This document shows positions 29,821-30,369 of a stretch of DNA of 64,000 nucleotides, piece after piece; the stretch's first letter is position 1; every line of letters begins with the position of its first letter. Under the pieces are notes generated by a model, which searched no databases, was not told where the DNA came from, and saw only the letters and a program-made list of their open reading frames with translations. A program made the translations under genes and the position numbers. This DNA comes from Escherichia coli (GTDB taxonomy: Bacteria; Pseudomonadota; Gammaproteobacteria; Enterobacterales; Enterobacteriaceae), in the NCBI RefSeq assembly GCF_002854065.1, contig NZ_CP024147.1. One strand, 5' to 3'.

Positions 29821-29913
29821 GGGATTTCCTTCCCGCGCATCAATAAAAATGGCGCTGAAAAAATATTCAACGCCATCGACTTTTTATGCCTTTGCGGCAT
29901 CGGACAATGCGTG

Positions 29914-30362
29914 TCGGATGCGGCGTAAACGCCTTATCCGATCTACGGCTCTACCCCTGCGCAGGCCTGATAAGACGCGCCAGCGTCGCATCAGGCAACG
30001 GCTGTCGGATGCGGCGTGAACGCCTTATCCGACCTACGGCTCTACCCCTGCGTAGGCCTGATAAGACGCGCCAGCGTCGCATCAGGCAACGGCTGTCGGA
30101 TGCGGCGTAAACGCCTTATCCGACCTACGGTTCTCCCCCTGCGTAGGCCTGATAAGACGCGCCAGCGTCGCATCAGGCAACGGCTGTCGGATGCGGCGTG
30201 AATGCCTTATCCGACCTACGGTTCTACCCCTGCGTAGGCCTGATAAGACGCGCCAGCGTCGCATCAGGCAACGGCTGTCGGATGCGGCGTGAACGCCTTA
30301 TCCGACCTACGGTTCTACCCCTGCGTAGGCCTGATAAGACGCGCCAGCGTCGCATCAGGCAA
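29914..30362. repeat. BIME/REP array: about five tandem copies of a 91-bp unit
   Basis: Unit starts at about 29914, 30005, 30096, 30187 and 30278; each carries an inverted REP pair (gatgcggcgtgaacgccttatccgacctacg / gtaggcctgataagacgcgccagcgtcgcatcaggc); copies differ by a few SNPs. Confidence 0.85.
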
Positions 30363-30369
30363 GACCGTA

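Follow-up and report, generated by a model that had tools for sequence, protein, structure and literature searches.

The window analysed here, a stretch of 64,000 nucleotides of Escherichia coli DNA (contig NZ_CP024147.1), carries between dedD and cvpA a BIME-2, one of the repetitive extragenic palindrome (REP) elements of E. coli that belong to the Y/Z2 class, amplified to five tandem units. The array is part of the dedD 3′ untranslated region and precedes the promoter of cvpA-purF-ubiX, and its five-unit allele is the long end of a common polymorphism. We consider it probable that what we see is an amplified BIME-2 in the dedD 3′ UTR whose units are turned over in register and which acts in a REP325-like manner as stabiliser, attenuator and barrier. 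BIME-2 arrays, their copy-number variation among strains and the K-12 locus itself are already in the literature or in public tables, one of which gives the K-12 orthologue as 'BIMEs2 <cvpA-<dedD' (Sutormin 2019, Table DS3). A full-text literature search for 'cvpA-dedD' and variants of this name returned no paper on the locus.

Tandem Repeats Finder reported one array with a period of 91, 5.0 copies, 97% matches, 0 indels and a score of 846, which is the sole tandem repeat of the window, and a repeat search of the array placed successive repeat starts 91, 91 and 91 apart. The units differ from their own consensus at 1-4 positions each, unit 1 being the most diverged with 4 differences, and from unit to unit 84-89 of the 91 positions are identical. 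Each is made up of a Y REP of 34 nt, a 14-nt linker (GGTTCTACCCCTGC), an inverted Z2 REP of 36 nt and a 7-nt linker (AACGGCT), and the five Y REPs on the plus strand thus alternate with five Z2 REPs on the minus strand, giving 10 palindromes (Table 1). The Z2 REPs show 0-1 mismatches to the Z2 consensus and the Y REPs 2-4 mismatches to theirs, a compensatory stem pair among them; the two consensus sequences used for this scoring were cross-checked against the Rfam naRNA4 alignment, which contains a Y and a Z2 hairpin. Single REPs folded as hairpins (as DNA, -10.0 and -12.9 kcal/mol, z -2.7 and -4.2), and the full array folded as RNA at -269.8 kcal/mol (z = -7.7), a value that none of 100 shuffled sequences equalled. 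An inverted-repeat search with a 9-nt seed reported none in the array, because a conserved mismatch interrupts the REP stems and leaves exact seeds of 7 nt at most; the hairpins are seen by folding and in the Rfam alignment. Two further REP-like palindromes of the window stand outside any array, a Y-like one with 2 mismatches (43147-43180, plus strand) and a Z2-like one with 4 mismatches (39691-39726, plus strand).

Table 1. Features of the dedD-cvpA region of the window, in the order in which they are met on the minus strand
Feature	Coordinates	Strand	Composition and basis
dedD	30370..31032	-	stop TAA 30370-30372; annotated K-12 CDS is 663 nt
BIME-2 array, five 91-bp units	29912..30362	.	period and REP positions
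Unit 5	30277..30360		Y REP 30277-30310 (+), Z2 REP 30325-30360 (-)
Unit 4	30186..30269		Y REP 30186-30219 (+), Z2 REP 30234-30269 (-)
Unit 3	30095..30178		Y REP 30095-30128 (+), Z2 REP 30143-30178 (-)
Unit 2	30004..30087		Y REP 30004-30037 (+), Z2 REP 30052-30087 (-); REP positions and hairpin folds
Unit 1	29913..29996		Y REP 29913-29946 (+), Z2 REP 29961-29996 (-)
Four Rfam naRNA4 (RF02564) matches	29964..30307	-	30237-30307, 30146-30216, 30055-30125, 29964-30034; covariance model
Partial copy of a unit end	29897..29911	.	GCATCGGACAATGCG, 15 nt, copy of unit end GCATCAGGCAACGGC, left boundary; repeat search, allele comparison
Small hairpin	29886..29900	.	ATGCC-TTTGC-GGCAT, conserved flank; read from sequence
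Terminator-like hairpin and T-rich tail	29838..29877	-	12-bp stem (29877-29848), reached after the array by transcription from dedD; terminator scan and fold
Putative cvpA-purF-ubiX promoter region	29791..29819	-	PUR-box-like ACGCAAACGTTTTC 29819-29806, -10-like TAGAAT 29796-29791; read by eye
cvpA, first gene of cvpA-purF-ubiX	29259..29747	-	ATG at 29747; ORF list and K-12 annotation

The assignment to BIME-2 follows the published definition, namely z2 and y REPs, short linkers and multiple tandem copies whose number varies among strains (Ton-Hoang 2012). In the array, inverted Y and Z2 REPs alternate, the linkers are short (14 nt and 7 nt) and a long L linker is absent, the tandem copies vary in number at this one locus (five here and 0-5 in other E. 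coli, in a 91-bp register), and the whole is extragenic, lying between the dedD stop codon and the cvpA promoter in a stretch with no annotated CDS. A preliminary description of this DNA had reported five near-identical tandem 91-bp units, each an inverted REP pair, located between cvpA and dedD, and Tandem Repeats Finder, the REP positions and the Rfam alignment all agree with it on this; the 91-bp periodicity and the REP palindromes of the units, the two points on which that description had staked itself, are both present, and the units align to Y and Z2 REPs. The unit starts that it quoted (29914, 30005 and so on) fall within 2 nt of 29912 + 91n, the phase being arbitrary. Its span of 29886-30365 holds for the periodic part, but the 26 nt at 29886-29911 are flank, made up of the small hairpin, which also occurs in an allele with an empty site, and of the 15-nt partial unit end, which forms a short direct repeat pair with the right end of the array. 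It had also called the array large, and its 10 palindromes do compare with the 1-12 palindromic units of K-12 REP elements (Harris 2026 preprint); among the K-12 BIME-2 table entries examined, REP325 alone (582 bp) is longer than the 451 bp found here.

According to the ORF list and the K-12 annotation, ubiX, purF, cvpA, dedD and folC are all encoded on the minus strand, and the array is therefore located in the dedD 3′ UTR and 5′ of the cvpA promoter. Read along that strand, the dedD stop codon is followed by a 9-nt spacer and by the first Z2 hairpin, that of unit 5, from 30360; the array ends at 29912, and beyond it come the partial unit end and small hairpin (29911-29886), the terminator-like hairpin with its T-rich tail, the PUR-box-like and -10-like elements and the cvpA start codon. 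The terminator-like hairpin folds as DNA at -9.1 kcal/mol (z -5.3) and its sequence is kept in Salmonella, Citrobacter and Enterobacter; the terminator scan gave this single consensus match, a count no higher than that of shuffled sequences. The conservation in these three genera covers the block from 29748 to about 29880, and the sequence beyond it is not conserved. We presume, from what we know of the pur regulon, that the PUR-box-like and -10-like elements are the promoter of cvpA-purF-ubiX; a generic sigma-70 promoter scan of 29600-30500 gave no site. As to dedD itself, its frame in the ORF list runs to a TTG at 31050, and a K-12-like gene of 663 nt would start at 31032. The length of the gene is polymorphic, 651 or 663 nt, owing to a 12-bp in-frame difference in some strains (loci L003 and L006 compared).

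The locus was found in every one of 5,426 complete E. coli genomes except one, and comparing it across strains yielded alleles of 0 to 5 units, in line with the earlier expectation that copy number varies among strains. The dedD-cvpA spacers of these alleles step by exactly 91 bp, from 167 bp with no unit (strain MMC-J-0078, L002, intergenic 549-715) through 258 bp with one (K-12), 349 bp with two (L007), 440 bp with three (L008) and 531 bp with four (O157:H7 strains, L009) to 622 bp with five (the window and O55:H7 CB9615). To estimate unit frequencies, the hit lists were sampled twice at even spacing, one list coming from a query with the flanks only. Together the samples comprised 119 genomes, of which 78 carried one unit, 16 four, 14 three, three five, three none and one two, with four degenerate alleles, that is, about 66% with one unit, 25% with three or four and 2-3% with five, fractions that are rough as the sampled genomes are phylogenetically non-independent. 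More than five units were found in none of these approximately 119 genomes. O157:H7 strains carry three or four units. The SNP patterns of the units indicate that whole units were gained or lost in register, and the five-unit alleles of the window and of CB9615 differ in unit composition. Three degenerate alleles were examined: in KN12-1 (L003) and ECCNB12-2 (L004) the spacer is 235 bp and an internal 23-bp deletion has fused the Y and Z2 REPs, and in IAI39 (L005) the spacer is 329 bp, the first Y REP is truncated and the linker is a different one, GGGGCTACTCCAGC. In strain JNE25-003 (L012, NZ_AP045053.1, locus 4299-6356), a five-unit allele is interrupted by IS1397, which sits in the loop of the third of its Z2 REPs and has duplicated the target GCCA; insertion sequences therefore target the array as well, and IS1397 is known to prefer these palindromes (reference cited in Ton-Hoang 2012).

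We also compared outgroups, one genome per species, scanned with a pattern of the cvpA N-terminus. The synteny of dedD and cvpA is kept across Enterobacterales, and a Y/Z2 BIME is found at the same site in E. albertii (two units), E. whittamii (two units) and a cryptic Escherichia clade (one unit); the element is therefore old in Escherichia. Further away, Citrobacter amalonaticus has a diverged pair of Y-like and Z2-like palindromes at the site, Salmonella arizonae one small palindrome, Enterobacter cloacae (L018) a different long palindrome and Pseudocitrobacter faecalis DSM 27453 (L028, 1031-1456) 7.2 tandem copies of an unrelated 59-bp unit with 88% matches. It seems that palindromic repeats particular to each species accumulate in the dedD-cvpA spacer.

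In E. coli the locus most commonly holds one Y-Z2 unit, and the empty allele is unlikely to be ancestral, since the BIME occurs in E. albertii, E. whittamii and the cryptic clade. At the empty site (L002), CATCGGGCAA is directly followed by GACCGTA, and occupied sites read CATCGGGCAA followed by TGCG...CATCAGGCAA and then by the same GACCGTA. A direct repeat, GCATC[G/A]GGCAA, matching at 10 of 11 nt, brackets the array in occupied alleles, which suggests that the array can be excised precisely by recombination; a secondary deletion between these repeats is the likelier origin of the empty allele. Growth and loss of the array would proceed by unequal recombination or replication slippage between the near-identical units. 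The REP-associated transposase TnpA(REP), which in vitro both cuts and recombines BIMEs and has been suggested as a source of copy-number variation (Ton-Hoang 2012), may help in the gain and loss of units. The unit resembles that of REPIN/RAYT systems in being an inverted REP doublet; unlike in those systems, the in-register alleles and the flanking direct repeat are equally explained here by homologous recombination or slippage.

The closest relative of the array is the cvpA-dedD BIME-2 of K-12, a single Y-Z2 unit of 83 bp that has flanks and REPs in common with the array and, like it, joins on 9 nt past the dedD stop codon. It differs in having one unit instead of five, the spacer of the window being longer by 4 x 91 bp (622 vs 258 bp), and in lacking the pairs made of a reverse-complemented Y, a linker and Z2 that span unit junctions, which exist only in the amplified allele. 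A further comparison is REP325, the source of naRNA1-6 (yjdM-yjdN, 12 hairpins), which likewise consists of alternating tandem Y and Z2 REPs between co-oriented genes and is transcribed from the upstream gene. However, its period is 100 nt, with 5.8-6 units, against 91 nt and five units here; the inter-hairpin linker of the window array is 6 nt shorter and its other linker measures 14 nt against about 23 nt in REP325. The two also differ in what lies behind them, as the downstream gene at the window locus has its own putative PurR-regulated promoter and an intervening hairpin with a T-run.

On the analogy with REP325 and other loci, from which we infer its steps, the array could act as follows. 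Transcripts of folC-dedD would run into it on the minus strand. The first hairpin, 9 nt past the stop codon in this as in every occupied allele, would stall terminating ribosomes and so dampen DedD output, REPs no more than 15 nt from a stop codon being described as stalling ribosomes and lowering translation (Liang 2015, as reported in PMC12306157). The stacked stable hairpins would next block 3′-to-5′ exonucleases and thereby protect the upstream message, and they would attenuate read-through, partly via Rho; the cvpA-purF-ubiX promoter, under PurR control, would be insulated by them jointly with the conserved hairpin and T-run that follow. REP325 was reported to stabilise the upstream mRNA, to attenuate the downstream gene approximately 8-10-fold, partly through Rho, and to yield a ladder of hairpin-ended transcripts; the same study found the effects of REPs to be context-dependent, with half-lives not uniformly lengthened (Harris 2026 preprint). 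At the DNA level, the Y REPs would serve as gyrase cleavage sites, with recruitment of gyrase as a side property. More units would strengthen the exonuclease block, the attenuation of read-through and the gyrase effect, not the stalling of ribosomes, and IHF would not be involved.

The gyrase step, which the preliminary description had also put forward, is plausible by comparison with K-12. Gyrase cleavage sites are over-represented in BIME-2s, mostly in Y REPs, though only a subset of BIME-2s is cleaved, and the single-unit K-12 orthologue is listed with 0, 2 (RifCfx), 1 (microcin) and 0 Topo-seq cleavage sites in the four conditions (Sutormin 2019, Table DS3). Among the entries examined in that table, gyrase cleavage sites are missing from many long K-12 BIME-2 arrays (345, 387 and 282 bp), and length is therefore no predictor of gyrase use.

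The reading that competes best with a REP325-like role is that of a neutral VNTR, selfish or junk, whose copy number drifts by slippage or recombination and whose length is inconsequential, and we hold this to be a real possibility, if not the probable one. Every copy number from zero to five, the empty site included, occurs in natural lineages, three and four units are found even inside the young O157:H7 clone, degenerate alleles exist, and the five-unit allele interrupted by IS1397 has retained its neighbouring genes. Because alleles with 0 to 5 units all persist, unit number is non-essential, and any effect that it has is dispensable and could be neutral. However, a palindromic element has been kept at the exact site across Escherichia, with other genera carrying elements of their own there, the pairing of the REP hairpins is preserved by compensatory changes, and REP325, a comparable array, has measurable effects. 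None of these points bears on unit number specifically. It is also conceivable that unit number is a heritable and fast-changing dial, which would set the insulation between folC-dedD and cvpA-purF-ubiX as well as gyrase recruitment, and that the long alleles of some lineages (five units in O55:H7, three or four in O157:H7) were selected, but we regard this as unlikely. Were it true, unrelated arrays in the same spacer, such as that of Pseudocitrobacter faecalis (59-bp x 7), would reflect a shared need for a barrier.

The Rfam matches raised the question of a nucleoid RNA. All four naRNA4 matches cover the full length of the model and score 75.1-83.3 bits, above the gathering score of 59.5, and each consists of a reverse-complemented Y, a short linker and Z2 and bridges a unit junction. 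In the alignment both hairpin stems are intact, the Y stem carries a compensatory change (GCCGG/CCGGC to GUCGG/CCGAC) and the linker is 6 nt shorter than in the model. REP325 itself gave six hits, scoring 95-111 bits, above the 75-83 bits of the window array, and a further site (L013, 3250-3330) gave one. The single unit of K-12 MG1655 (L001, 3765-4022) gave none. The match is confined to amplified alleles because the modelled pair bridges a unit junction; the model sees only this phase and therefore misses single BIME-2 units, which are in the other one. By these matches, naRNA4-like RNAs made from the four junction-spanning hairpin pairs might bind HU, bridge DNA cruciforms and condense the chromosome: the matched strand is the one transcribed from dedD, naRNA4 was reported to bind HU and to condense cruciform-bearing DNA, which takes two hairpins such as Y and Z2 (Qian 2015), and the property would arise only with amplification. 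We nevertheless judge this very improbable. Deletion or over-expression of REP325 leaves nucleoid volume unchanged, and neither a stable ternary complex of HU, cruciform and naRNA4 nor long-range REP-REP contacts were found (Harris 2026 preprint), so that the nucleoid role of naRNA4 is itself disputed between this study and Qian 2015. In addition, a covariance-model match reflects shared sequence and structure, not function, and most E. coli have one unit at the locus and hence no such RNA.

Even less can be said for the functional model of the preliminary description, in which the array binds IHF and gyrase, stabilises upstream mRNA and modulates 3′-end processing of cvpA-purF-ubiX. Gyrase cleavage at the K-12 orthologue and the general stabilisation of upstream mRNA by REPs agree with it, but its geometry is reversed: the array lies 5′ of the cvpA promoter, the 3′ end of that operon is at ubiX (27041), about 2.9 kb away, and, with all genes on the minus strand, the upstream mRNA that could be stabilised is folC-dedD. 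The IHF part fails as well, since it is the L linker of BIME-1, a class that pairs z1 with y in a single copy, that carries an IHF site (Ton-Hoang 2012), and the IHF consensus WATCARNNNNTTR has no match within 29886-30365, all seven matches of the window lying elsewhere. BIME-1 (RIB/RIP) was rejected as the class of the array on the same grounds, the partner REP being Z2, not Z1. In both classes, inverted paired REPs lie outside genes, at the 3′ ends of transcription units; BIME-1 has the long conserved L linker with its IHF site, whereas the array combines Z2 with the two short linkers and is tandemly amplified. We give this model next to no chance of being correct.

The regular spacing and the ORFs of 43-95 aa in the repeat could point to an assembly artefact, a CRISPR-like array or small protein-coding genes, but these readings are excluded, as window positions 29500-30700 (1,201 bp) are 100% identical in two independent complete genomes (strains 100416 and CUWW06) and five-unit alleles with different SNPs occur in at least 10 other genomes, as whole 91-bp units, linkers included, are 97% identical and unique spacers are absent, and as a Pfam scan of the three repeat ORFs found no family, RefSeq annotates no CDS in the array region of the 11 strains fetched and identical peptides recur among these ORFs on both strands, which makes them translations of the repeat, as the preliminary description had it, and not genes.

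The array belongs to an ordinary, catalogued kind of repeat and has little importance other than for annotation, where the label ought to be BIME-2 (REP) array with naRNA4-like units instead of ORFs. If it has a regulatory target, this may be the end of the folC-dedD transcript and transcription reading through into cvpA, rather than the 3′ end of the purF operon. As copy number differs within O157:H7, the locus might be of minor use for typing. The REP literature is still debating how the number of REPs affects termination, mRNA stability and gyrase use (Harris 2026 preprint), and the series of natural alleles with 0 to 5 units may provide a small test set for this question.
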